This document shows positions 1,076 through 13,070 of a stretch of DNA of 31,378 nt, piece after piece. This stretch comes from a virus (taxonomy: Duplodnaviria; Heunggongvirae; Uroviricota; Caudoviricetes), in IMG/VR virus record IMGVR_UViG_2667527976_000002, one strand, 5' to 3'. A model generated the notes under the pieces. It saw only the letters and a program-made list of their open reading frames with translations, ran no database searches and was not told the DNA's origin. Positions within the stretch are counted from its first letter, which is position 1, and each line of letters opens with the position of its first letter. The position numbers and the translations under genes were made by a program.

Positions 1076-1990
1076 ATGCGCTCAATAAAAAAAGTAACCA
1101 TGCTCTTGGGGGGCCTCGCACTCACCTGCTCGATCGCATTTCAGGCAAGTGCAACTGAAAAATTCAAGGTCATTACAACATTTACCATCATCGCAGATAT
1201 GGCCAAAAACGTGGCTGGAGATGCTGCAGAAGTCTCATCCATAACCAAGCCCGGTGCAGAAATTCATGAGTATCAGCCTACCCCTGGCGATATTAAACGT
1301 GCGCAGGGGGCACAACTGATTCTCGCCAATGGTATGAATCTGGAATTGTGGTTCCAACGCTTTTACCAGCATCTTAATGGGGTTCCAGAAGTAATTGTCT
1401 CTTCGGGTGTGACGCCAGTAGGGATCACTGAAGGCCCCTATGAGGGCAAACCTAACCCCCATGCCTGGATGTCGCCAGATAATGCTCTGATTTACGTCGA
1501 TAATATTCGTGATGCGTTGATAAAATACGATCCGGCAAATGCACAAACCTACCAACGTAATGCCGATACTTATAAAGCCAAGATTACCCAAACCCTTGCC
1601 CCCCTGCGTAAGCAGATTGCTGAACTCCCTGAGAATCAGCGATGGATGGTCACCAGTGAAGGGGCTTTTTCTTATCTCGCACGCGATTTGGGGCTAAAAG
1701 AGCTTTATCTGTGGCCGATTAATGCCGATCAACAAGGCACGCCGCAGCAGGTACGTAAGGTTGTTGATATGGTGAAGAAAAATCATATCCCGGCAGTCTT
1801 TAGCGAGAGTACGATTTCCGATAAACCAGCGCGTCAGGTTGCGCGTGAAACCGGCGCGCACTACGGCGGTGTACTCTATGTCGATTCCCTGAGCACAGAA
1901 AACGGCCCGGTACCTACGTATATCGACCTTCTGAAGGTTACTACCAGTACGCTGGTACAGGGAATTAAAGCCGGGAAAAGGGAGAAATAA
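1076..1990 (+). CDS. sitA: Periplasmic Mn/Fe-binding protein of ABC transporter (cluster A-I / TroA-like), SitA
   Basis: 304-aa ORF with signal peptide ([26 protein letters not shown]); ATG start at 1076; stop overlaps the sitB start. Confidence 0.9.
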
Positions 1991-2817
1991 TGATGCAATC
2001 TGCGGGCATTGTCGTTAATGATGTTACTGTCACCTGGCGTAACGGGCACACAGCACTGCGCGATGCATCCTTCACAGTACCAAGTGGATCTATTGCCGCT
2101 CTGGTTGGGGTAAACGGTTCCGGAAAATCGACGTTGTTTAAAGCGATTATGGGATTTGTGCGTCTGACCAGCGGAAAGATATCTGTTCTGGGTATTCCCA
2201 CGCGACAGGCGCTACAGAAAAACCTGGTTGCCTACGTCCCTCAGTCAGAAGAGGTTGACTGGTCATTTCCTGTACTAGTGGAAGATGTGGTGATGATGGG
2301 CCGCTATGGGCACATGGGTATGTTGCGTATAGCCAAAAAGAGGGATCGTCAGATTGTCACCGATGCGCTGGAACGTGTCGATATGGTGGATTTTCGCCAT
2401 CGACAAATCGGCGAGCTTTCCGGTGGACAAAAGAAACGCGTCTTTCTGGCGAGAGCGATTGCACAGCAGGGTGATGTGATCCTGCTGGATGAACCTTTTA
2501 CCGGCGTTGATGTGAAAACCGAAGCGAAAATCATCAGCCTGTTGAGGGAGTTACGCGCGGAAGGCAAGACGATGCTTGTCTCAACGCACAATCTCGGCTC
2601 AGTCACGACATTTTGCGATTATACGGTCATGGTCAAAGGCACCGTCCTGGCAAGCGGGCCGACAGACACCACTTTTACAGCCGAGAACCTGGAGCTGGCT
2701 TTTAGCGGCGTACTGCGCCATGTCACACTTAACGGCTCGGAAGAAAGCATTATTACTGACGATGAACACCCTTTTGTGGCACATCGACCGTCAGCGGTGC
2801 AGGGGGAAGCAAGATGA
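1990..2817 (+). CDS. sitB: ABC transporter ATP-binding protein SitB
   Basis: 275 aa; Walker [13 protein letters not shown] signature LSGGQKKR, Walker B ILLDEP; start overlaps sitA stop (translational coupling). Confidence 0.9.
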
Positions 2818-3671
2818 ACGTGCTACTGGAACCCTTCAGCTATGAATATATGCTCAATGCGATGTGGGTCTCGGCGATGGTCGGCGGTCTCTGCGCTTTC
2901 CTGTCATGCTATCTGATGCTAAAAGGCTGGTCGCTGATTGGCGATGCGCTGTCGCACTCTATTGTCCCAGGTGTTGCGGGGGCATATATGCTGGGGCTTC
3001 CGTTTTCTCTGGGAGCCTTCTTTTCCGGCGGACTGGCAGCGGGCAGCATGCTGTTTCTTAACCAACGCACTCGCTTAAAAGAAGATGCCATCATCGGCCT
3101 GATCTTCTCCTCCTTTTTTGGCCTGGGGCTGTTTATGGTGTCATTGAACCCGACATCCGTGAACATTCAGACCATCGTCCTGGGCAATATTCTGGCAATC
3201 GATCCGGCGGATATCCTGCAACTCACTATCATTGGCATTCTCTCGATCATCGTGCTTTTTTTCAAATGGAAAGATCTTATGGTGACCTTTTTCGACGAGA
3301 ATCACGCTCGTGCTATTGGATTGCATCCGGGCAGATTAAAAATCCTCTTCTTCACCCTGCTGTCGGTTTCGACCGTTGCGGCGCTGCAAACGGTTGGTGC
3401 CTTTCTGGTGATCTGTCTGGTGGTGACTCCCGGTGCAACAGCATGGTTGTTAACCGATCGTTTTCCCCGCCTGCTCATAATTGCTGTAACTATTGGCAGT
3501 GTAACCAGTTTCCTCGGCGCGTGGGTCAGTTACTTTCTGGACGGCGCGACAGGTGGAATCATCGTGGTGGCGCAGACACTGCTGTTTCTTTTAGCATTTG
3601 TATTTGCGCCCACCCATGGGCTTTTGGCAAATCGTCGGCGTGCGCATAAAGCGCTGGAGGATCGCTCATGA
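2814..3671 (+). CDS. sitC: ABC transporter permease SitC
   Basis: 285-aa polytopic hydrophobic protein; start overlaps sitB stop by 4 nt. Confidence 0.9.
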
Positions 3672-4525
3672 TGGCATTATTACTGGAGCCACTGCAGTTC
3701 ACCTTTATGAGTCACGCACTGCTGATTTCACTGGTAGTTTCCATACCCTGTGCGCTGCTGTCGGTCTTTCTGGTCCTGAAAGGTTGGGCACTGATGGGTG
3801 ACGCGATGAGTCATGCGGTTTTTCCTGGCATCGTGCTTGCCTGGATTCTGGGGTTACCTCTGGCTACAGGGGCATTCGTCGCCGGAGTATTCTGCGCGGT
3901 GGCGACGGGATACCTGAAAGACAACAGCCGAATCAAGCAAGATACAGTGATGGGGATTGTTTTTTCTGGCATGTTTGCCGCAGGTCTGATCTTGTATATT
4001 GCAGTCAAACCAGACGTACATCTTGACCATATTCTTTTCGGCGACATGCTCGGGGTAACCATCGGCGATATAATCCAGACGGTGATTATTGCCGGGCTGG
4101 TTACACTTGTTATTAGCGTAAAATGGCGGGATTTTTTGCTGTTCAGCTTTGATTATCAACAGGCGCAGGTAAGCGGTTTGCATACGAGATGTCTGCATTA
4201 TGGGCTGCTGTGCATGGTCTCTCTGACCATTGTGGCGACGCTGAAAGCGGTAGGTATCATTCTCTCCATTTCTCTGCTCATTGCGCCTGGCGCCATTGCG
4301 GTACTCCTGACACAACGCTTTCATATTGCGCTCCTACTGGCGATTGGCATATCGGTAATAGTGTCAATGACTGGTGTCTGGTTGTCCTTTTTTATCGACA
4401 GTGCACCAGCTCCGACGATTGTCGTCTTATTCGCGGTTGTGTTCATCATGACGTTCACCGTTACCAGCATCAACGCACGCACAAAGGGAAACACCCATAC
4501 ACAGGATTTGTCATCACCCAATTAG
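3668..4525 (+). CDS. sitD: ABC transporter permease SitD
   Basis: 285-aa hydrophobic paralogue of SitC; ATGATG start overlaps sitC stop. Confidence 0.9.
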   Translation: MMALLLEPLQFTFMSHALLISLVVSIPCALLSVFLVLKGWALMGDAMSHAVFPGIVLAWILGLPLATGAFVAGVFCAVATGYLKDNSRIKQDTVMGIVFSGMFAAGLILYIAVKPDVHLDHILFGDMLGVTIGDIIQTVIIAGLVTLVISVKWRDFLLFSFDYQQAQVSGLHTRCLHYGLLCMVSLTIVATLKAVGIILSISLLIAPGAIAVLLTQRFHIALLLAIGISVIVSMTGVWLSFFIDSAPAPTIVVLFAVVFIMTFTVTSINARTKGNTHTQDLSSPN

Positions 4526-4723: not shown

Positions 4724-4876
4724 CATAATCCCAATGATTACTCCCTGACAGGGTTCGTAGGCCACTCAATATCAGGTGCAGTTGATGTATCAACACGGTT
4801 CAGCAGCATCCGATACTTTTTCCAGGCTTCCAGCAACGGGGTTTCTTCCTCCGTTGCATATACAGCTCACCTTTTT

Positions 4877-5176
4877 TCACCCACGATTAACCAACAGCCA
4901 GACCAGCAGACACGCCACCACCGGCACAGCAAAATCCATCAGGCTTGCCACATCCCATGCACGTGTATCAAAACCGCCCCACCACGGCATATTCATTCGC
5001 TTGCCATGCCCGAACATTTCGATCCAGCGATATTCTGCCTGGGTGTGTTCACGCGCAATGAAGAACGTACAACCGGCTATCGCCCCGTAAGCCCAGTTCC
5101 CGGTAAAAAGACCAATCAGTAGCTGCGCAGCCACAGCACAAAGCGCATGAAGGAAAGGTGTTATATCCATTTTCAT
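4877..5176 (-). CDS. Hypothetical small membrane protein (about 97-99 aa, three hydrophobic segments)
   Basis: Track ORF 4877-5185 begins at a TTG. In-frame ATGs at 5174-5176 and 5168-5170 (the latter with AGGA 6 nt upstream) are more plausible starts. The product MKMDITPFLHALCAVAAQLLIGLF... is hydrophobic. Function not recognised. Confidence 0.35.
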   Translation of the reverse strand: MKMDITPFLHALCAVAAQLLIGLFTGNWAYGAIAGCTFFIAREHTQAEYRWIEMFGHGKRMNMPWWGGFDTRAWDVASLMDFAVPVVACLLVWLLVNRG

Positions 5177-5185
5177 CCTACCCAA

Positions 5186-5207
5186 TAAAACGGGGCGCTC
5201 GGCCCCT
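5186..5207 (-). terminator. Candidate rho-independent terminator after the tail-fibre operon
   Basis: Minus-strand hairpin ggggc-cgagc-gcccc (5192-5206) followed by guuuuauu; located 6 nt downstream of the stop of the 346-aa gene. Confidence 0.4.
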
Positions 5208-5212
5208 TAATA

Positions 5213-6253
5213 TTATTTAGACGCAAGCGCCGCCTCAATTGCAGATAATCTTTGTCTTAATTCTGCGTTTTCTTCTTCCAGTGCTGTTATTCTGTCGTCT
5301 GACTCTCTGGCTACCTGAACAAGCAAGCCAGTAACACCAGAATAATCTACTGTGTAATAACGTTCACCTTCTTCACCTTCCGATCCGCTCGCACCGTCCT
5401 GATATTTCATTGCGGAACCTACAACTTCTGGGATTGCTTCCAGAGCTTCCTGTGCAATGACACCAGCATAGGGCATACCGTTTTCTTTAAGCGTGTATGT
5501 ATAGCCGTTCATTTTACGGATGCGGTCGGTTGCATTATCGATCACCTGAATGTTGTCTTTCAGATCCCGGTCGGAATGCTGGTTAAATGCGGTGGCATGA
5601 CATGCACCATTAACGCTTAACATATAGGTGTTATCGGTATTTTTCTGCGCATAGAACATATAAGCGCCACCATCAACACCGACTTCATAAACAACAGGAC
5701 GGCTGGAGTTGCCCCACAATTGAGCAGTAACACCAGCATAAGCGGTTCCCTGTGTGTTTAATGTCATGGTTGACCCATGATTGGCATATTTGATCTGTAA
5801 TGTGTCGGTGTAATCAAATTTAATAAGCGCGTTACTTCCACGCTTGCTGTATGACATAAGGCAGTTACCCATTTTGAGGTATCCGCTGTCACCGGGAAAA
5901 ATCATCGTACCGCCATAAAGGTTGGTAAAGTCCCAGCAAATGTTTGTCCCGTTATCGTTCAGGTTAAGGCGCGCCATTGCGTTACCTGGACTGTCTATCC
6001 ATTTTTTGAGGTATAGTTCGCAATACGCATCCTCAACACCTGCCGTCCTGTGAGTTGAGCGGAGTTTTCTCCCAAATATAGCTCCGCTAGTTGGCAATAC
6101 CTGCTGATACCATGAAGCAGACCAGTCACCAACGATTTCATCTTTGCTGTCTACATATAATTTTGTTGCGTAGCTTCCTTGATCGTTTTTTAATTTGCTA
6201 ACGTCGGATTTTAGCGTTTTGATGTCATCAGGAATTACTGTCGATGTAGCCAT
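5213..6253 (-). CDS. Tail fibre / tailspike-like protein with C-terminal peptidase-S74-type intramolecular chaperone domain
   Basis: 346 aa, ATG at 6251-6253. The C-terminal ~110 aa (HSDRDLKDNIQVIDNATDRIRKMNGYTYTLKENGMPYAGVIAQEALEAIPEVV ... ITALEEENAELRQRLSAIEAALASK) has the hallmark motifs of the autoproteolytic chaperone of endosialidase-type fibres (SDxxLKxNI, GxIAQE, terminal coiled coil). Confidence 0.7.
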   Translation of the reverse strand: MATSTVIPDDIKTLKSDVSKLKNDQGSYATKLYVDSKDEIVGDWSASWYQQVLPTSGAIFGRKLRSTHRTAGVEDAYCELYLKKWIDSPGNAMARLNLNDNGTNICWDFTNLYGGTMIFPGDSGYLKMGNCLMSYSKRGSNALIKFDYTDTLQIKYANHGSTMTLNTQGTAYAGVTAQLWGNSSRPVVYEVGVDGGAYMFYAQKNTDNTYMLSVNGACHATAFNQHSDRDLKDNIQVIDNATDRIRKMNGYTYTLKENGMPYAGVIAQEALEAIPEVVGSAMKYQDGASGSEGEEGERYYTVDYSGVTGLLVQVARESDDRITALEEENAELRQRLSAIEAALASK

Positions 6254-6262
6254 TTTTCTTCC

Positions 6263-6544
6263 TCACATCCAGCCACGAAGTTGATGCTCAACAGCAACCA
6301 CGTATTCATCGAATAATGACGATATTTGCGAATCATTAATGATGCGCACGTTTACAAAATATCCGTCTTCCTTAACACATACCGGTTCGCCATCTTCAGT
6401 CAGTTCTCCGGTTTCTTTGTACACGTTACCTATCACGTCGATAAGAATATCATCCTGCATCGACTCGTCATCATAATAGCCAATACTCTCCATAAAGGCC
6501 GAAAAGTCGGCCCTGTCTTCAAATTTGAGTGTTAAATCTTTCAT
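6263..6544 (-). CDS. Hypothetical small acidic protein (93 aa) encoded between the two fibre genes
   Basis: ATG at 6542-6544 overlaps the stf stop (TAATG); its stop lies 10 nt before the next gene; Asp/Glu-rich. Function not recognised. Confidence 0.55.
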   Translation of the reverse strand: MKDLTLKFEDRADFSAFMESIGYYDDESMQDDILIDVIGNVYKETGELTEDGEPVCVKEDGYFVNVRIINDSQISSLFDEYVVAVEHQLRGWM

Positions 6545-8943
6545 TAGATTGACTCCCCCATTTGTGCCTCAGTTAATTCTTTATGCCAAATGCGTAAATT
6601 TTTCACATGACCGAACAGGTGTCTGTTGCCACTGGATGATTGTCCACCGATATTAATATTACCGGCAGTATAACGTTGCAATGTATGCAGAGACGGGGAG
6701 CTGCCACCTAAAATTCCATCAACAACAACCTGCAACTGTTTATCTTCTGTAAACTTAAAGCCAGTAACAAATTTCCTTTTCTCTCTATTCCCATATGCTT
6801 TATATTCTGTTTTTGTTCCTTTGCCATTGGTGATAATTAGCCTTTTACCACGAGTGGTAAAACCAAAATACATATAACTTTCATCAGAAACTTCAGTCGT
6901 CGCCCCTGTAATTGAGATATTAAGCAAACGCGCAGAGCCTTCTAAATTAGGCATTTCAGAATCCCAATTAACATTAACTTCCATGAGAACACTAACTGGT
7001 GGAGTTGCCCAATTGAAAGGTATAGGTATGATTACCTGGTCACTTGCTCTCGTGGCACCGACCTCTGTTGTGATGATAAAAGATGACGCGTTTAGTCCCT
7101 TTTCGAATTGAGGGGTTGTTAACATTAATTTATCGCCAGACTTGATTGATCGTTGATGTGCTCCAAACTCAAAACGCCCATACATATTTTTTGCTTCTGG
7201 TGATTTGTAGGTAAACTCAACACGAATCCATCCATTAGACTCTCTGAATATGTTATAAGTTGCCGCCTCACCTCCAGAATAACTCAACATATCGCCAGTC
7301 TCGCAATCAATATATGCGCCAGCGGTCAGTGTGTTACTTGAGCCATCGTCGTTAACATATGATATTCTTGGACGCAACGTGATAATACCATCCCCACTTA
7401 CTTTTTTAACTCTGCAGGATAAAGTAACTGATTCATTTGCCGAAACTGAAATAACCCTGGTATATCCAGTAGAAATTAATGTCGCCCTTTCAGTTGTGGA
7501 TGTTTCTTTAACGCCAAACAAACCATAACTGAAACCATACTCATCAACTCCCGTGGTAATAGTTAAGTTAGCAGTGTCATAGTTCCACGATACTGGTGTA
7601 TTCGTATAAGAAAAAGTATTCGTTCTCTGACCTTCAATGAGCAGACCATCTTTTTCAAAACGTGGTTCATTTATCGCTGATTCAGCAAAACACCCAGACT
7701 TATCTATATACGTTGCAGTTGACGCCCTGGTAAATGAAACAACCTTTTCAGACGGCAATGCAATAACATCGTCACCAACTGTGATGCTCTTATATCCAGG
7801 AGCAAACCCGGTAATCATATCCAGTGAATCGTTAAACGGTATCCACACCTCAGGTAACGGCTGTAAGACATATTTATACGGCTCCGCAGCCTGGCTTGCG
7901 TACTCTCTGGCTGCATCTTCGCTTGCTTTAGCTGCCGTCTGGCTTGCTGCCGATGCTTTCGCTGAGTTCGCAGCCGCTGTTTCGCTCGCCTTTGCGTTGG
8001 TTTCACTGGTTTTTGCTGCTTTTTGACTGTTAGCTGATGCAGTGGCAGAAGCAGCCGCCGCACTTGCAGAACCAGCTGCAGCACTCTCGCTTTCAGCTGC
8101 TGCAGCCTGACTACTTTTCGCCGCAGTTTCACTGGCTTTGGCATTCGTTTCGCTGGTCTTCGCTGCTGTCTGGCTGGACTTTGCGTTAGTTTCACTCGTC
8201 TTCGCAGCTTTCTGGCTGTTAGCCGCAGCAGTTGCTGATCCGGCTGCTGAAGTCGCAGAACCGGCCGCCGCACTCTCGCTTTCAGCTGCTGCATCCTGAC
8301 TGCTTTTCGCCGCAGTTTCACTGGCTTTGGCATTCGTTTCGCTGGTTTTCGCTGCCGTCTGGCTGGACTTCGCGTTGGTTTCGCTCGTCTTTGCGGCTGT
8401 CTCACTGTTTTTCGCGTTGGTTTCTGATTTTTTGGCTGCAGTCGCGGAGTTTGCCGATGCAGTCTGTGAGGCCGCTGCCGCCTGTGCGCTGTTAGCTGCG
8501 TTCGTTTCTGAGGTTTTCGCCGCGTTCTTCGATGATGCCGCTGCTGTTTCGGATTTCTTTGCCGCCGCTGCGCTCTGAGAGGCGGCTTCAGCGTTGCGTG
8601 CCGCTTCTTCCACCATTTCCTCAAAACGACGCAATGCCTCCGGCATGACATCATCTTCCGTCATGGCACCGAGAAAATCATTCAGCGTCCCCGGCTTAGA
8701 ATCTTCATACACGGTGATGGTCCCGGCATGTGAAGGCGGAAAACCTTCAACCAGCAGGATAACGCTGTACTGGCCATACTCAACATCCATGCTGTAACGC
8801 CCGGCTTCATCCGGATTTTCAGAGGCCACCGTGTTCACCAGTACCGTGGTGCTGTTACGCTTTGCCTTCAGTTGAATAGTGCAGTTCTGTATTGGTTTTC
8901 CCGCACCATCTTTCAGCACACCTGAGATTTTTACTGCTGCCAT
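6544..8943 (-). CDS. stf: Side tail fibre protein Stf: lambda-like N-terminus, Ala/Ser/Thr-rich repeat shaft, non-lambda C-terminal domain (LamG-like tip)
   Basis: N-terminus MAAVKISGVLKDGAGKPIQNCTIQLKAKRNSTTV... matches recalled lambda Stf. The track ORF starts at a GTG at 8947-8949; the ATG at 8941-8943 gives the lambda-like start. The C-terminus ...NINIGGQSSSGNRHLFGHVKNLRIWHKELTEAQMGESI resembles laminin-G/concanavalin-type lectin folds. Confidence 0.85.
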   Translation of the reverse strand: MAAVKISGVLKDGAGKPIQNCTIQLKAKRNSTTVLVNTVASENPDEAGRYSMDVEYGQYSVILLVEGFPPSHAGTITVYEDSKPGTLNDFLGAMTEDDVMPEALRRFEEMVEEAARNAEAASQSAAAAKKSETAAASSKNAAKTSETNAANSAQAAAASQTASANSATAAKKSETNAKNSETAAKTSETNAKSSQTAAKTSETNAKASETAAKSSQDAAAESESAAAGSATSAAGSATAAANSQKAAKTSETNAKSSQTAAKTSETNAKASETAAKSSQAAAAESESAAAGSASAAAASATASANSQKAAKTSETNAKASETAAANSAKASAASQTAAKASEDAAREYASQAAEPYKYVLQPLPEVWIPFNDSLDMITGFAPGYKSITVGDDVIALPSEKVVSFTRASTATYIDKSGCFAESAINEPRFEKDGLLIEGQRTNTFSYTNTPVSWNYDTANLTITTGVDEYGFSYGLFGVKETSTTERATLISTGYTRVISVSANESVTLSCRVKKVSGDGIITLRPRISYVNDDGSSNTLTAGAYIDCETGDMLSYSGGEAATYNIFRESNGWIRVEFTYKSPEAKNMYGRFEFGAHQRSIKSGDKLMLTTPQFEKGLNASSFIITTEVGATRASDQVIIPIPFNWATPPVSVLMEVNVNWDSEMPNLEGSARLLNISITGATTEVSDESYMYFGFTTRGKRLIITNGKGTKTEYKAYGNREKRKFVTGFKFTEDKQLQVVVDGILGGSSPSLHTLQRYTAGNINIGGQSSSGNRHLFGHVKNLRIWHKELTEAQMGESI
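8020..8397. repeat. Tandem direct repeat (2 copies of ~189 bp plus a partial third) inside stf
   Basis: Near-identical DNA blocks (for example 8088-8215 versus 8268-8395) encode the 63-aa unit AAKTSETNAKSSQTAAKTSETNAKASETAAKSSQ(D/A)AAAESESAAAGSA...ANSQK twice, with nested ~14-aa sub-repeats. Confidence 0.7.
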
Positions 8944-8954
8944 ATCCACTCCAC

Positions 8955-8981
8955 AAAAAAGCCCGCCTGAACCGGCGGGCT
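8955..8981 (-). terminator. Rho-independent terminator downstream of lom
   Basis: Minus-strand hairpin agcccgcc-ggttca-ggcgggct followed by uuuuuu; sits between the lom stop (9008) and the stf start (8943). Confidence 0.5.
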
Positions 8982-9007: not shown

Positions 9008-9607
9008 TCAGAACTTATAACCGACACCCACGATGAAACCGTCAGTGCGCCAGTCACCACTGCCGGAGCCTTCATAAGCAATATCAATGGCCACGGATTC
9101 GGTCGGGTTAAACTGCACGCCAGCTCCCCACGCCAGAGACGTGTTGCTGTGGCGACCGTCATCACTTCCGGTCAGCACATCGTGCGTTTTCCCCTTGTTG
9201 TCAGTTACGCGGAGGTAATCCCCGGAAAAAGTCGAAACACGGCTGTAAGCCATACCCGCCATCGCATACGCGCTGAACCATTCATTCACGCGCACAGACG
9301 GCCCCGCCATCACGCTGAACCAGCGGTTACGCACGGAATCTTTATGCCAGCGGGTATCGCTGTAACGGGTCAGCTGACGATTCTTGTATCCTGCATAACT
9401 GAATGACGTCACCAGCCCCAGCGTGTCCGTAAATTCATAACGGTATTTCACGTTAATGCCCTTCAGGTCATCACTGCCTGGCATATCAGTATGGGTCTGA
9501 AGATACCCGGCGCTTAGTGTGGACTGATGCTCTGCTGCGCTCGCTGGCGTACCAGCGGCAACCAGCCAGACTACTGCGGACAGAATAACAGCACATAATT
9601 TACGCAT
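9008..9607 (-). CDS. lom: Outer-membrane protein Lom (Ail/Lom family beta-barrel)
   Basis: 199 aa with signal peptide MRKLCAVILSAVVWLVAAGTPASA; body closely matches recalled lambda Lom; ATG at 9605-9607. Confidence 0.9.
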   Translation of the reverse strand: MRKLCAVILSAVVWLVAAGTPASAAEHQSTLSAGYLQTHTDMPGSDDLKGINVKYRYEFTDTLGLVTSFSYAGYKNRQLTRYSDTRWHKDSVRNRWFSVMAGPSVRVNEWFSAYAMAGMAYSRVSTFSGDYLRVTDNKGKTHDVLTGSDDGRHSNTSLAWGAGVQFNPTESVAIDIAYEGSGSGDWRTDGFIVGVGYKF

Positions 9608-9674: not shown

Positions 9675-12600
9675 TCAGCTGATACTGATGCCTGCAGTGG
9701 CTTTCTTCATCACAACAACCAGCAAATCGCTGATACTTGCTGTGGGATACCAACCATTTACCCACCATGCTGATACAGAAAACTCCAGTGTCATTACACC
9801 ACTGCCTGCAGGCATATCAATAACACCCGTGTAAATCAGAGTATTATCCAGAGCCGTTCGGTTATAAATTTCAGCCCCGTTTTTCTTCACTATCAGGCGG
9901 CATGACGAATAAGTATCGCTATTCTCCCGCTCATGTCTGGCACCGCAGAAAGCCACCGCTGGAATAACAATTTGCCGGTCAAACGACTGATCGTCATAAA
10001 CCCTGACGGTAATAGTCCCTGATGGCCACCGCTCCGGTGCACGGGAGTCCCGGGGGAAAGCTTTGCCCACTGTTTTAACGAGATCGCCTTCAATCTGGTT
10101 CGCGGACAGTTTTCCCAGAACCCGACAGTTCTCGTTAATCGTGACATTATTGAGCGTCCCGGAGTTCGCATTCACGTTACCGCTGATATCGGCATTTTTC
10201 GCCGTCAGCCGCCCGTCCGGTGTCAGGGAAAATACCGGAGGATTGCCGCCACTGGTAATGGTGGGAGCCGTCAGATACTTCAGGAACACTTCGTTCATGA
10301 ATATCTGGTTGCCCTGCGCCACAAACATCGGCGTTTCATTCCCGTTTGCCGGGTCAATAAACGCGATACGGTTAGCGGCAACCAGGAACTGGCTCAGTTT
10401 GCCTTCCTCCGTATCCTCCATACTAAGGCCAAGCCCCGCGACATAATGCCTGCCGTCTTCGGTCTGCTCAATTTTGACGCCCCACATGGCATTCCATTTA
10501 TCGTTGGCGTCCTTCCACTCTTTCGAAAACTCCTCCAGTTTGCTGGCGTTATCCTCCGTCAGCTCGACTTTTTCCAGCAGCTCCTTGCCGAGATGGGATT
10601 CGGTTATCTGGCCTTTGAAAAAATCCAGGTAACCTTCCGCATCATCGCTCGGCTGACCAACAGCCTCCACGAATGCCGATTTGCCAACGGTGTTCACACT
10701 GCGGATATAAAAGTAATAATCATGGCCCGGTTTGATATTGATACTGGCAGCTATCCAGTACAGCGCCGTACCAAGATAGCGGGCTGTGGTCTCAACCTGC
10801 CTGATATCGGTAATCCGCTTTTCCGAGAACCAGAACTCAAACTGTACCGTCGGATCATAAACCGCAAGATGCGGCGTGGCAGTTATCTGAAAATAGCCCG
10901 GCGTCAGCTCAATCCGCGACGGCGCTGCCGGTGCGGCAATCCGGAACGATACCGATGCCGGATCGCCCTGCTGTCCCCACGCATTTACCGCCCGGACCGT
11001 CAGCGTGTAACGCCCCAGCGCCAGTTGCCTGAAGCGGTATGTGGTTTCCGTCGTCCTGGCCGTGCTGACCAGCCGCTCACTGCCGTCATCCGCTGCCACG
11101 GTCAGGCGAAGCATAAAGCTCACCCCCTTCACCACCTTCGGCGTATCCCAGCGCGCCAGCACCTGATACTCCCCGCTGTCTGAGGTGACTTCGGCAGTCA
11201 GGTGCTGCACCGCAGGCGGCGTGACACCATTCACCGTGCCGCTCTGGTCGCCGTCAAAGTGCGCCCCGTTATCCACGATGGCCTCTTTTTCCGGCACATG
11301 CTGCACGGCGGTGATGGCATACGTGCCGTCGTCGTTCTCACGGATACTCACGCAGCGGAACAGGCGCTGGCGCAGCGTCGGCAGCTTCAGCCCCCACACG
11401 CTGTATTCAGCAACACCGTCAGGAACACGGCTCACTTTTACCTTCACGCCGTCGGTGACGGACTGAACCTCCACGCTGACCGGATTGCCACTTCCGTCAA
11501 CCAGACTTATCAGCGTGGTACCGGAGGATGGCAGCGTGATTTCACGGTCGAGCGTCAGCGTCCGGGTCTGGCTGTTCACCGCCAGCACGCGCCCGCCGAT
11601 GCTGATACCCGCATAGTCATCATCACAGATTTCAATGACATCCCCCGGTACATGGCGAAGCCCTTCCGCACCCACGCTGAAGTCCACGGTCTGCGTTTCC
11701 AGCAGTTCCGTTTTAATCAGCCACAGCCCGGCGCGGTGCGCCTGCCCCCGGCTGGTACAGCCAAAGGCATCCATCTTCGTGACGTTACGACCGTAACGGG
11801 CAATGGCCTGCGTATCTTCAACAAGCTCTGTCGCCGTCTCCCAGCCGTTGTTCGGGTCAATCCAGTTCACCTCAACGGCATTATGGCGGTCCTTCAGGGC
11901 GCTGAAGCTGTAGCGGAACGGCGCGCCATCATCCGGCATCACCACATTACTGCGGTTATAGGTCCACACCTTATCTGATGGTCGGTCCTGCACGAACGTC
12001 AGCGTCTGCCCGTTCCATACCGGCATACAGCGCATCGCCGAGCAGAAATCACTGAGCACATCCCACGCCTTGCGCTGTGTGGTCAGCCAGGCATTACAGG
12101 TGATGCGCGGCTCCGTGCCACCAAAGCCATCCGGCACCGACTGGTCGCAATTCTGGCCGATGACATACAGCGCCCATTTGTCCACATCCGCCGCACCGAG
12201 ACGCTTCCCCATGCCGTAGCGCGGATGGGTCAGCATATCCCACAGACACCAGGCCATGTTGTTGCTGTATGCTGGCTTAAACGTTCCGTCCCAGATACCG
12301 CTGTATTGTCGCGTCTGCGGGTTATAGTTCGACGGCACCTGCAGAATGCGCCCGCGAAGATGATAATTACGACTCACCTGCTGGCTGCCGAACTGCTCCG
12401 AGTCCACCTGTACGCTGACCAGTGCCGTGTTCGGGTAGCACTGTTTCACATCGATGATTTCGGTGTATGACGACCAGAGCGTTTTGTTCTGCAGCTGGTC
12501 TGTGGTGCTGTCCGGCGTCATCCTGCGCATCCGGATATTAAACGGGCGCGGCGGCAGGTTATCCACCACCACCGAGGCCAGATACTGCGAGGTGGTTTTG

Positions 12601-13070
12601 CCTTTAATGGTGATGTCTTTTTCCGTCACCCAGCCACCGTTACGCTGTATCTGAACCAGCAGGCGGACTTCCGACGGATTCCGGTCCCCCTTTGAGGTGG
12701 TTTCCACCAGTGCCTGCACACCGAAGGTAAAGCGCAGACGGTCGATGTTTGCAGACGTGATGGTCCGGGTAATCGGCGTGTCGTACTTCACTTCCGTACC
12801 CAGCACCGTCTCGGAGCCGGAGGATTCAAATCCCTCCGGCGGTGTCTGCTCCTGCTCACCTGCCCGGAACACCACCGTGACACCGGAGATATTGGTATTC
12901 CCCTCACTGTCCAGCACCGGCGTACTGTTCAGCAGCACACTTTTTAATCCGTCCACCGGACCTTCAATCGGCCCTTCACTGATGGCGTCTATCACGCTCA
13001 GCATCTGGGATGATTTCAGGTTGTCCTTCGCTTCGCGCGGGGTATGCCCCTTACTGCTGCCTTTACCCAT
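9675..13070 (-). CDS. J: Tail tip / host-specificity protein J (central tail fibre)
   Basis: 1131 aa; N-terminus [20 protein letters not shown]... and most of the body match recalled lambda J; the C-terminal ~150 aa diverge. Confidence 0.95.

Follow-up and report, generated by a model that had tools for sequence, protein, structure and literature searches.

A lambda-type side tail fibre with a predicted lectin-like distal module in virus record IMGVR_UViG_2667527976_000002

The initial, glycan-level step in the host range of phages is governed by their side and lateral fibres. Here we report an analysis of the side tail fibre gene (stf) and the genes that follow it in IMG/VR virus record IMGVR_UViG_2667527976_000002 (Caudoviricetes), a stretch of 31,378 nucleotides (nt) that is hereafter called the window. 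By gene content and composition, Stf is confirmed as a mosaic in which the front half is lambda-like and the distal half appears to have been swapped for a mobile module of low GC content. This refines existing knowledge and does not overturn it; the locus, which belongs to a lambda-like prophage of E. coli, is an ordinary example of phages exchanging host-recognition parts. The protein family is already catalogued (PHROG 1419, Pfam, NCBIfam) and named by the Prokaryotic Genome Annotation Pipeline (PGAP), and its lectin-like domain has been noted in print for phage IrisVonRoten.

The stf gene and its lambda-like front half

The tail operon is lambda-like, with J (1131 amino acids, aa; 9675-13070), lom (9008-9607) and, after them, stf (6544-8949), all on the minus strand. 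Stf of Ur-lambda (orf-401 plus orf-314) has the same place after J and lom, the same PF08400 domain and the same repeat shaft. The features of the gene, together with a remnant of the tail fibre assembly gene tfa, are as follows:

6544-8949, minus strand: stf, side tail fibre; 801 codons from GTG at 8949, uninterrupted (from the list of open reading frames, ORFs)
8548-8937, minus strand: lambda-type N-terminal virion-attachment domain, residues 5-134 (PF08400 phage_tail_N, E 1.6e-68)
7870-8547, minus strand: lambda-like Ala/Ser/Thr-rich repeat shaft, residues ~135-360 (from composition and from BLASTP similarity to orf-401 up to residue 331)
7642-7869, minus strand: conserved neck or junction, residues 361-436, LQPLPEVWIPFNDSL...EPRFEKDG (high column conservation in a 55-sequence alignment)
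7045-7641, minus strand: D1, first predicted beta-sandwich, of gene transfer agent (GTA) head-spike-fibre type, residues 437-635 (NCBIfam NF048003)
6547-7044, minus strand: D2, second predicted beta-sandwich, Laminin_G_3/concanavalin A (ConA)-like, residues 636-801 (PF13385 at residues ~690-796)
4741-4857, minus strand: tfa remnant, last 39 codons (tblastn with lambda Tfa 156-194, 85% identity, E 1.2e-16)

The protein matches PHROG 1419 ('tail protein') end to end. Its true start is probably the ATG at 8943, since GGAG lies 6 nt upstream and the residues that follow match the lambda start MAVKISG; this gives 799 aa, the length found in phage PhiR46_1. Between lom and stf, a GC-rich stretch followed by a T run (8950-8975, minus strand; …CAGGCGGGCTTTTTTG) lies just 5' of the stf ribosome-binding site and looks like a putative terminator.

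Lambda orf-401 shares 59% identity with residues 5-331 (BLASTP E 4.5e-80), and residues 111-360 consist of 37% Ala, 18% Ser and 10% Thr. Both the N-terminus and the shaft thus bear out an earlier note on this DNA, made from the letters alone, which had likened them to lambda Stf. The DNA of the shaft carries tandem repeats of 189 nt (2.3 copies at 7976-8409) and of 42 nt, corresponding to units of 63 aa and 14 aa. Two ORFs run through the repeat region in alternative frames (7815-8654, minus strand, 279 aa, Arg/Gln-rich; 7637-8026, plus strand, 129 aa); they are by-products of the repeat composition and not genes. The RefSeq sequence NZ_CP098187.1 contains the same locus (5045-7444 of the examined stretch, equal to window 6544-8943) with a middle coding sequence (CDS) of 109 aa, WP_072007368.1, which is probably a spurious call because it shares its stop with the out-of-frame 279-aa ORF.

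The distal module and its exchange

The likeness to lambda ends with the shaft. With residues 361-801 of the 801-aa ORF (window 6547-7870, minus strand; hereafter the tip) as query, the best E-value that BLASTP gave against lambda orf-314 or Tfa was 7.8. Five His and no HxH motif are present in the tip, compared with 16 His and eight HxH motifs in orf-314, in line with the earlier remark that the distal ~440 aa lack the His/Gly-rich repeats of lambda. Compared with lambda Stf and Tfa, the distal 440 aa are unrelated and tfa is not functional; two ConA-like domains and genes for a 93-aa and a 346-aa protein are found instead. No intact Tfa gene lies directly 3' of stf; of tfa, only the last 39 codons are left, at 4741-4857 (labelled in RefSeq as an incomplete tail fiber assembly protein). 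Since this remnant survives, an insertion appears to have displaced the distal half of stf and most of tfa, and the remnant reads as a fossil of the former stf-tfa arrangement. The GC content is 0.40 in the tip, 0.415 in the 93-aa gene and 0.446 in the 346-aa gene, compared with 0.548 in the part encoding Stf residues 1-360 and 0.567 in J. Because homology to orf-314 and an intact Tfa gene are both lacking, the protein belongs to the lambda Stf family in its front half only; at the domain level, its distal half falls into the Laminin_G_3/ConA-like and GTA_spike_fiber families.

The distal part is read as three pieces, the neck (residues 361-436), D1 (~437-635) and D2 (~636-801). D1 matches the NCBIfam model NF048003 (GTA_spike_fiber) with 66.1 bits (cut-off 36) over profile positions 1-181 of 182. 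With the last 168 aa as query, D2 matches PF13385 (Laminin_G_3) with 29.0 bits (gathering score 27.6; E 1.3e-6); with the whole 441-aa piece as query, the score is 27.2 bits, just below the gathering score. Precomputed PF13385 matches are present in many homologues of the tip, one of which is named LamG-like jellyroll protein by its source. The earlier note had seen a LamG/ConA-like signature in the C-terminal peptide NINIGGQSSSGNRHLFGHVKNLRIWHKELTEAQMGESI, which is the exact end of the protein, and the PF13385 match above the gathering score together with the same Pfam match in many homologues confirms, at the level of sequence profiles, that this signature goes beyond chance resemblance. No PDB entry was matched by the tip sequence at E up to 10.

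In the 55-sequence alignment, the conserved columns lie in the neck, in the opening and closing strands of D1 (EPRFEKDGLLIEGQRTN; TPQFEKG..ASSFI.T....TRASD) and in the last strands of D2 (GNRHLFGHVKNLRIWHKELT), and the cores of D1 and D2 are the least conserved. An AlphaFold2 (AF2) model of the tip based on these 55 sequences (down to 25% identity) is nearly all beta-strand, with a predicted local distance difference test (pLDDT) score of 91.9 and a predicted TM-score (pTM) of 0.86. It supersedes a first run with 18 close homologues, which was poor (pLDDT 62, D1 alone confident). The pLDDT of D1 is 80-97 in both models, and that of D2 is mostly >90 in the 55-sequence model. D1 and D2 are both predicted to have a jelly-roll beta-sandwich fold, so the lectin-like jelly-roll proposed in the earlier note holds for the fold (PF13385, AF2) and is incomplete in its domain count, with two tandem beta-sandwich domains in place of one. 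Comparison of the D1 and D2 profiles with hhalign found no similarity beyond 11 deliberately overlapping columns, and internal duplication can therefore not be claimed from sequence.

The structure searches point to the ConA-like superfamily. Foldseek with the first AF2 model matched tandem pairs, laminin LG4-5 and galectin-8. Matches in BFVD over the whole length were to coliphage fibres (TMq 0.80-0.87), and many uncultured-virus proteins named 'Concanavalin A-like lectin/glucanases' aligned over >400 columns. The best non-phage matches of the tip are carbohydrate-binding, non-catalytic modules. ConA-like relatives comprise CBM40 sialic-acid modules, domain 4 of the GH43 protein AbnA, pentraxins, the HcN domain of botulinum neurotoxin (BoNT), laminin G/LNS domains and the baseplate protein gp46 of Pseudomonas phage Pa193, with sequence identities to the tip of just 6-19%. 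The hidden Markov model and structure searches that the earlier note had proposed for the tip thus gave PF13385, NF048003 and ConA-like Foldseek and BFVD matches.

Comparison with related phages located the exchange to the base pair. Relative to phage 2G7b, the DNA is 92% identical down to window position 7619 (residue ~443), residues 444-777 (the D1 and D2 cores, to window 6616) are unalignable, and from residue 778 on the identity is 97.7% through the remaining genes. Relative to the N15-like phage PhiR46_1, the sole unalignable part is 7606-7054 (residues 448-631, the D1 core). The DNA flanking the breakpoints in the two phages is 88-98% identical. Such sharp breakpoints indicate cassette exchange of D1 and D2, with a short conserved arm on either side. 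The single module swap at the shaft-tip junction that had been proposed earlier is therefore right as to replacement and coarser than the actual mosaic, which has breakpoints also inside the tip (~444-448, 631, 777).

The neck (residues 361-436) is likely to be a recombination arm: many representative proteins match query residues ~4-100 and nothing else. By megablast, 1475 E. coli genomes were matched, and most of the listed matches lie within window 7738-7870 (many at ~7766-7861), with a DNA identity of 83-93% in most listed rows; this is consistent with cassette exchange at conserved arms. This tip allele is present over at least 80% of its length in just 38 of these genomes. Homologues of the tip were found in 217 phage records, 196 of which cover at least 80% of its length, and in 1412 clusters of a 1.8-billion-protein library. 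The phage types among the 217 records are lambda-, N15-, T1-, T5- and rV5-like. A homologue with 75% identity is also joined to a P2-type N-terminus beside P2 baseplate genes, and the tip is borne by fibres of T5-like, T1-like, Dhillonvirus, Queuovirinae and rV5-like phages. The drop in GC content, the tfa remnant, these other fibre backbones and the sharp breakpoints are four independent lines that speak for replacement of the lambda distal half.

The locus thus displays a temperate lambda-like phage swapping both a whole distal module and single domains predicted to be lectin-like. This can be of use in interpreting the host range of prophages in uropathogenic and avian-pathogenic E. coli, and the conserved junctions offer natural splice points for engineered lambda-based delivery particles, in which Stf chimeras already work (10.1101/2022.09.30.509847).

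The genes downstream of stf

Three further genes follow stf on the same strand, of which the 93-aa gene and the 346-aa fibre gene had been missed in the earlier note:

6263-6544, minus strand: 93-aa acidic protein with 22 D+E and 7 K+R (PHROG 1361)
5213-6253, minus strand: 346-aa second fibre protein (PHROG 4563; Pfam PF13884)
4877-5170, minus strand: 97-aa small hydrophobic protein, 102 aa from a TTG start in the ORF list (PHROG 1443; two hydrophobic segments)

The start of the 93-aa gene overlaps the stop of stf by 1 nt (TAATG), and the gene is predicted to be translationally coupled to stf. Its product has no relative in Pfam, NCBIfam or the PDB (matches to the latter being at chance level), and homologues are held by 181 phage records. 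In every locus inspected, a homologue (39-98% identity) lies directly 3' of the homologous fibre gene. The inspected loci were those of lambdoid prophages (L004-L008), the lambda-like phages 2G7a and 2G7b, PhiR46_1, the T1-like G3B1, VogelGryff (Seuratvirus), the T5-like IrisVonRoten and one rV5-like phage.

The 346-aa protein contains a Peptidase_S74 intramolecular chaperone (IMC) at residues 227-278 (window 5420-5575; PF13884, E 4.8e-14). Distal fibres and spikes usually end in such a chaperone, and the protein is a candidate distal receptor-binding protein (RBP). The chaperone domain matches the distal subunit of the long tail fibre of phage S16 (6F45) weakly. A triad of fibre, ~92-aa protein and IMC-bearing protein recurs in PhiR46_1, 2G7b, G3B1, VogelGryff and IrisVonRoten. 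The bodies of the third-gene products differ, and the N-terminal ~37 aa are common to otherwise unrelated proteins: those of the 346-aa protein are 57% identical to a 224-aa protein of G3B1 and 73-100% identical to the third-gene products of JenP1, ESCO3, 2G7b and PhiR63_1. The first 50 residues are 96-100% identical across genera (2G7b, Tritos, HannyBb, PhiR63_1, ESCO3). In PhiR63_1 and ESCO3, the two that were checked, the preceding tips are ~40% identical. Near-identical N-termini of the 346-aa protein beside divergent tips indicate that the tip and the downstream genes recombine independently.

Many loci have a dyad of fibre gene and ~92-aa gene with no third fibre gene, among them that of the phage record Lambda_2G7a. 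Proteins of the same 93-aa type (85% identity) are found both with and without the third gene, so the 93-aa protein is probably an assembly factor or cap for the tip itself and not just a linker. The same observation of 85%-identical proteins in loci without a third gene weakens the view of the 93-aa protein as a mere linker for the third protein.

Among known systems, the closest arrangement is that of IrisVonRoten (Bas32, T5-like), in which the T-shaped RBP gp24 is modelled as bound to the proximal fibre gp22, and the C-terminal galectin-like domain of gp22 has been noted as a possible extra receptor-binding domain (PMC11990801). The distal part of gp22 and the full-length tip share 42% identity, gp23 (92 aa) is 39% identical to the 93-aa protein, and gp24 is an IMC-bearing third-gene product with the N-terminal motif MxTxTVIPxDIxxLK, as in the 346-aa protein. 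By gene order and motif, the locus matches the gp22/gp23/gp24 arrangement. It differs in that the N-terminal attachment domain in IrisVonRoten is T5-type and the third protein has 574 aa there and 346 aa here; nothing beyond the N-terminal motif is detectable between the 346-aa protein and gp24, and the published gp22/gp24 complex is a prediction. Among the phages listed for the first ~26 residues of gp24, those present in the sampled lists for the tip and the 93-aa protein also carry this tip. A far wider occurrence than for the first ~26 was seen for residues 27-69 of gp24.

In the T5-like phages DT57C and DT571/2, the LtfA/LtfB fibres are branched and L-shaped, a second RBP is held via its conserved N-terminal ~45 aa, and both LtfA and LtfB recognise O-antigens (PMC4728585). 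Their docking region differs (phiEco32 gp14/gp15 type) and a ConA-like tip or 92-aa gene has not been reported there, so that the likeness, drawn by analogy, is functional and not one of membership. Searches of the literature found PhiR46_1 and the other PhiR phage names in no paper, and nothing specific on 'LamG' combined with lambdoid side tail fibres.

Proposed function and alternative explanations

On this evidence it is likely that the fibre is a lambda-type Stf in which the lambda distal half and tfa have been replaced by a lectin-like module with the 93-aa and 346-aa genes. The replacement module would consist of the neck, the tandem ConA-like domains D1 and D2, the coupled 93-aa protein and, here, also the 346-aa protein, whose IMC would be autoproteolytic. 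The variable cores of D1 and D2 would bind surface polysaccharide (O-antigen, capsule or another glycan) in a reversible primary adsorption that precedes engagement of the terminal receptor by J. Conserved parts of the module, possibly with the 93-aa protein, would dock the N-terminal ~26-37 residues of the 346-aa protein and thereby extend or branch the fibre, giving it two specificities, and the 93-aa protein would assist the assembly of fibres with such a tip or act in them as a connector. Given the downstream 93-aa gene and the S74-bearing 346-aa gene, what is here called the tip may terminate just a proximal fibre bearing another RBP, and would then not be the end of the whole fibre.

Beyond the domain content, predicted fold, breakpoints and gene linkage, which are observed, glycan binding by the tip is plausible by analogy, judging from the fold, the NF048003 family and what lateral fibres do in related phages. 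NF048003 takes its name from the RcGTA head spike fibre, which binds capsular polysaccharide (PMC10218006), and the lateral fibres of T5- and T1-like phages have been reported to bind O-antigen (PMC8594841). The family model named for this RcGTA fibre (Rcc01080), which has a predicted lectin-like beta structure, is matched by D1 along its whole length. The RcGTA fibre sits on the capsid spikes of an alphaproteobacterial GTA, whereas D1 lies near the end of a tail fibre, which limits membership to the domain level.

Several observations weigh against the proposed replacement by a glycan-binding, docking module. ConA-like domains can bind proteins or be purely structural, the NCBIfam model is the sole link between D1 and Rcc01080, and the AF2 model of the tip is a monomer where a trimeric fibre is expected. 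Dyad-only loci imply that docking cannot be the sole role of the module. Phages with tips that are just ~40-57% identical have 93-aa and 346-aa proteins with 95-100% identity, so any contact between these proteins and the tip must use conserved surfaces, which is assumed here.

It is unlikely that D1 and D2 are a structural adaptor only, docking the 346-aa RBP without host recognition of their own. The arrangement as in IrisVonRoten, where gp22 is modelled as a proximal fibre bearing the specificity-determining gp24, would fit such an adaptor, as would the conserved framework strands and the typical distal-fibre IMC of the 346-aa protein. However, loci without a third fibre gene are common (including Lambda_2G7a), and cassette exchange affects the hypervariable cores of D1 and D2, with hardly any difference in the downstream genes, which is the pattern of specificity determinants and not of a docking platform. 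Binding of the tip to a protein receptor, for instance an outer-membrane porin, in place of carbohydrate is slightly less probable again; the fold permits it, and contact of lambda Stf with OmpC is the classical proposal, but the best non-phage structural matches are carbohydrate-binding modules, D1 falls into a family named for a capsule-binding GTA head spike fibre, and the virulent phages that carry this module have lateral fibres described as O-antigen binders. The contrast with a lambda-type receptor that the earlier note had drawn is in any case weaker than claimed, since engagement of O16 O-antigen has been proposed for Stf of Ur-lambda as well (PMC11990801).

That the tip is an enzyme breaking down surface polysaccharide, as a ConA-like glucanase or depolymerase, is very improbable, as the top structural matches are non-catalytic, residues 361-801 contain no ExDxxE or ExDxE (GH16-type) catalytic motif, and the Pfam and NCBIfam searches found no glycoside-hydrolase family. 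We give even less weight to stf being a prophage pseudogene in decay, which might be concluded from the RefSeq annotation of the 99.96%-identical locus in NZ_CP098187; there, PGAP divides the gene into a 'prophage tail fiber N-terminal domain' (pseudo), a 'phage tail protein' and a 'phage head spike fiber domain' (pseudo), with both pseudo features marked incomplete. The 801-codon ORF is unbroken both in the window and in NZ_CP098187.1, which differ by two substitutions and no indels. The protein matches PHROG 1419 over its full length, the middle CDS of RefSeq is read in a different frame of the repeats, and homologous cassettes are present in the genomes of phages PhiR46_1 and 2G7b. The pseudogene reading was rejected, there being no frameshift or stop within 6544-8949; because the ORF is intact, the three-way split is, as judged from the reading frame, an annotation artefact.

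Returning to the replacement by a lectin-like module, the points most worth attention are the 92-aa partner and the common N-terminal anchor of the third proteins. It is possible, although we lean somewhat against it, that the ~92-aa protein and the conserved lectin framework form a socket across fibre families, into which interchangeable distal RBPs of enterobacterial sipho- and myoviruses are plugged by an anchor of ~26-37 residues (MxTxTVIPxDIxxLK...). If so, ConA-tipped fibres would be branched adhesins of dual specificity and the 92-aa protein would represent a new class of connector or chaperone.

Beyond the 346-aa gene, the 97-aa protein may be a lysogenic-conversion or exclusion factor; it is 90-95% identical in PhiR46_1, the prophage loci L004 and L007 and Lambda_2G7a, regardless of the tip allele. 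Coliphage-type fibre sequences also occur in records labelled 'Listeria phage' (OR847733.1 and OR849447.1; 1.6-1.8 kb) and 'Campylobacter phage' (MG0656xx), one of which matches the N-terminus of IrisVonRoten gp24 with 100% identity; contamination or wrong labels probably account for these entries. The fibre cassette is directly followed by the iron/manganese transporter operon sitABCD (1076-4525, plus strand), which is also found inside the deposited 46.7-kb phage record Lambda_2G7a (5439-8263 of the examined locus) and is therefore here probably prophage cargo rather than a chromosomal neighbour.

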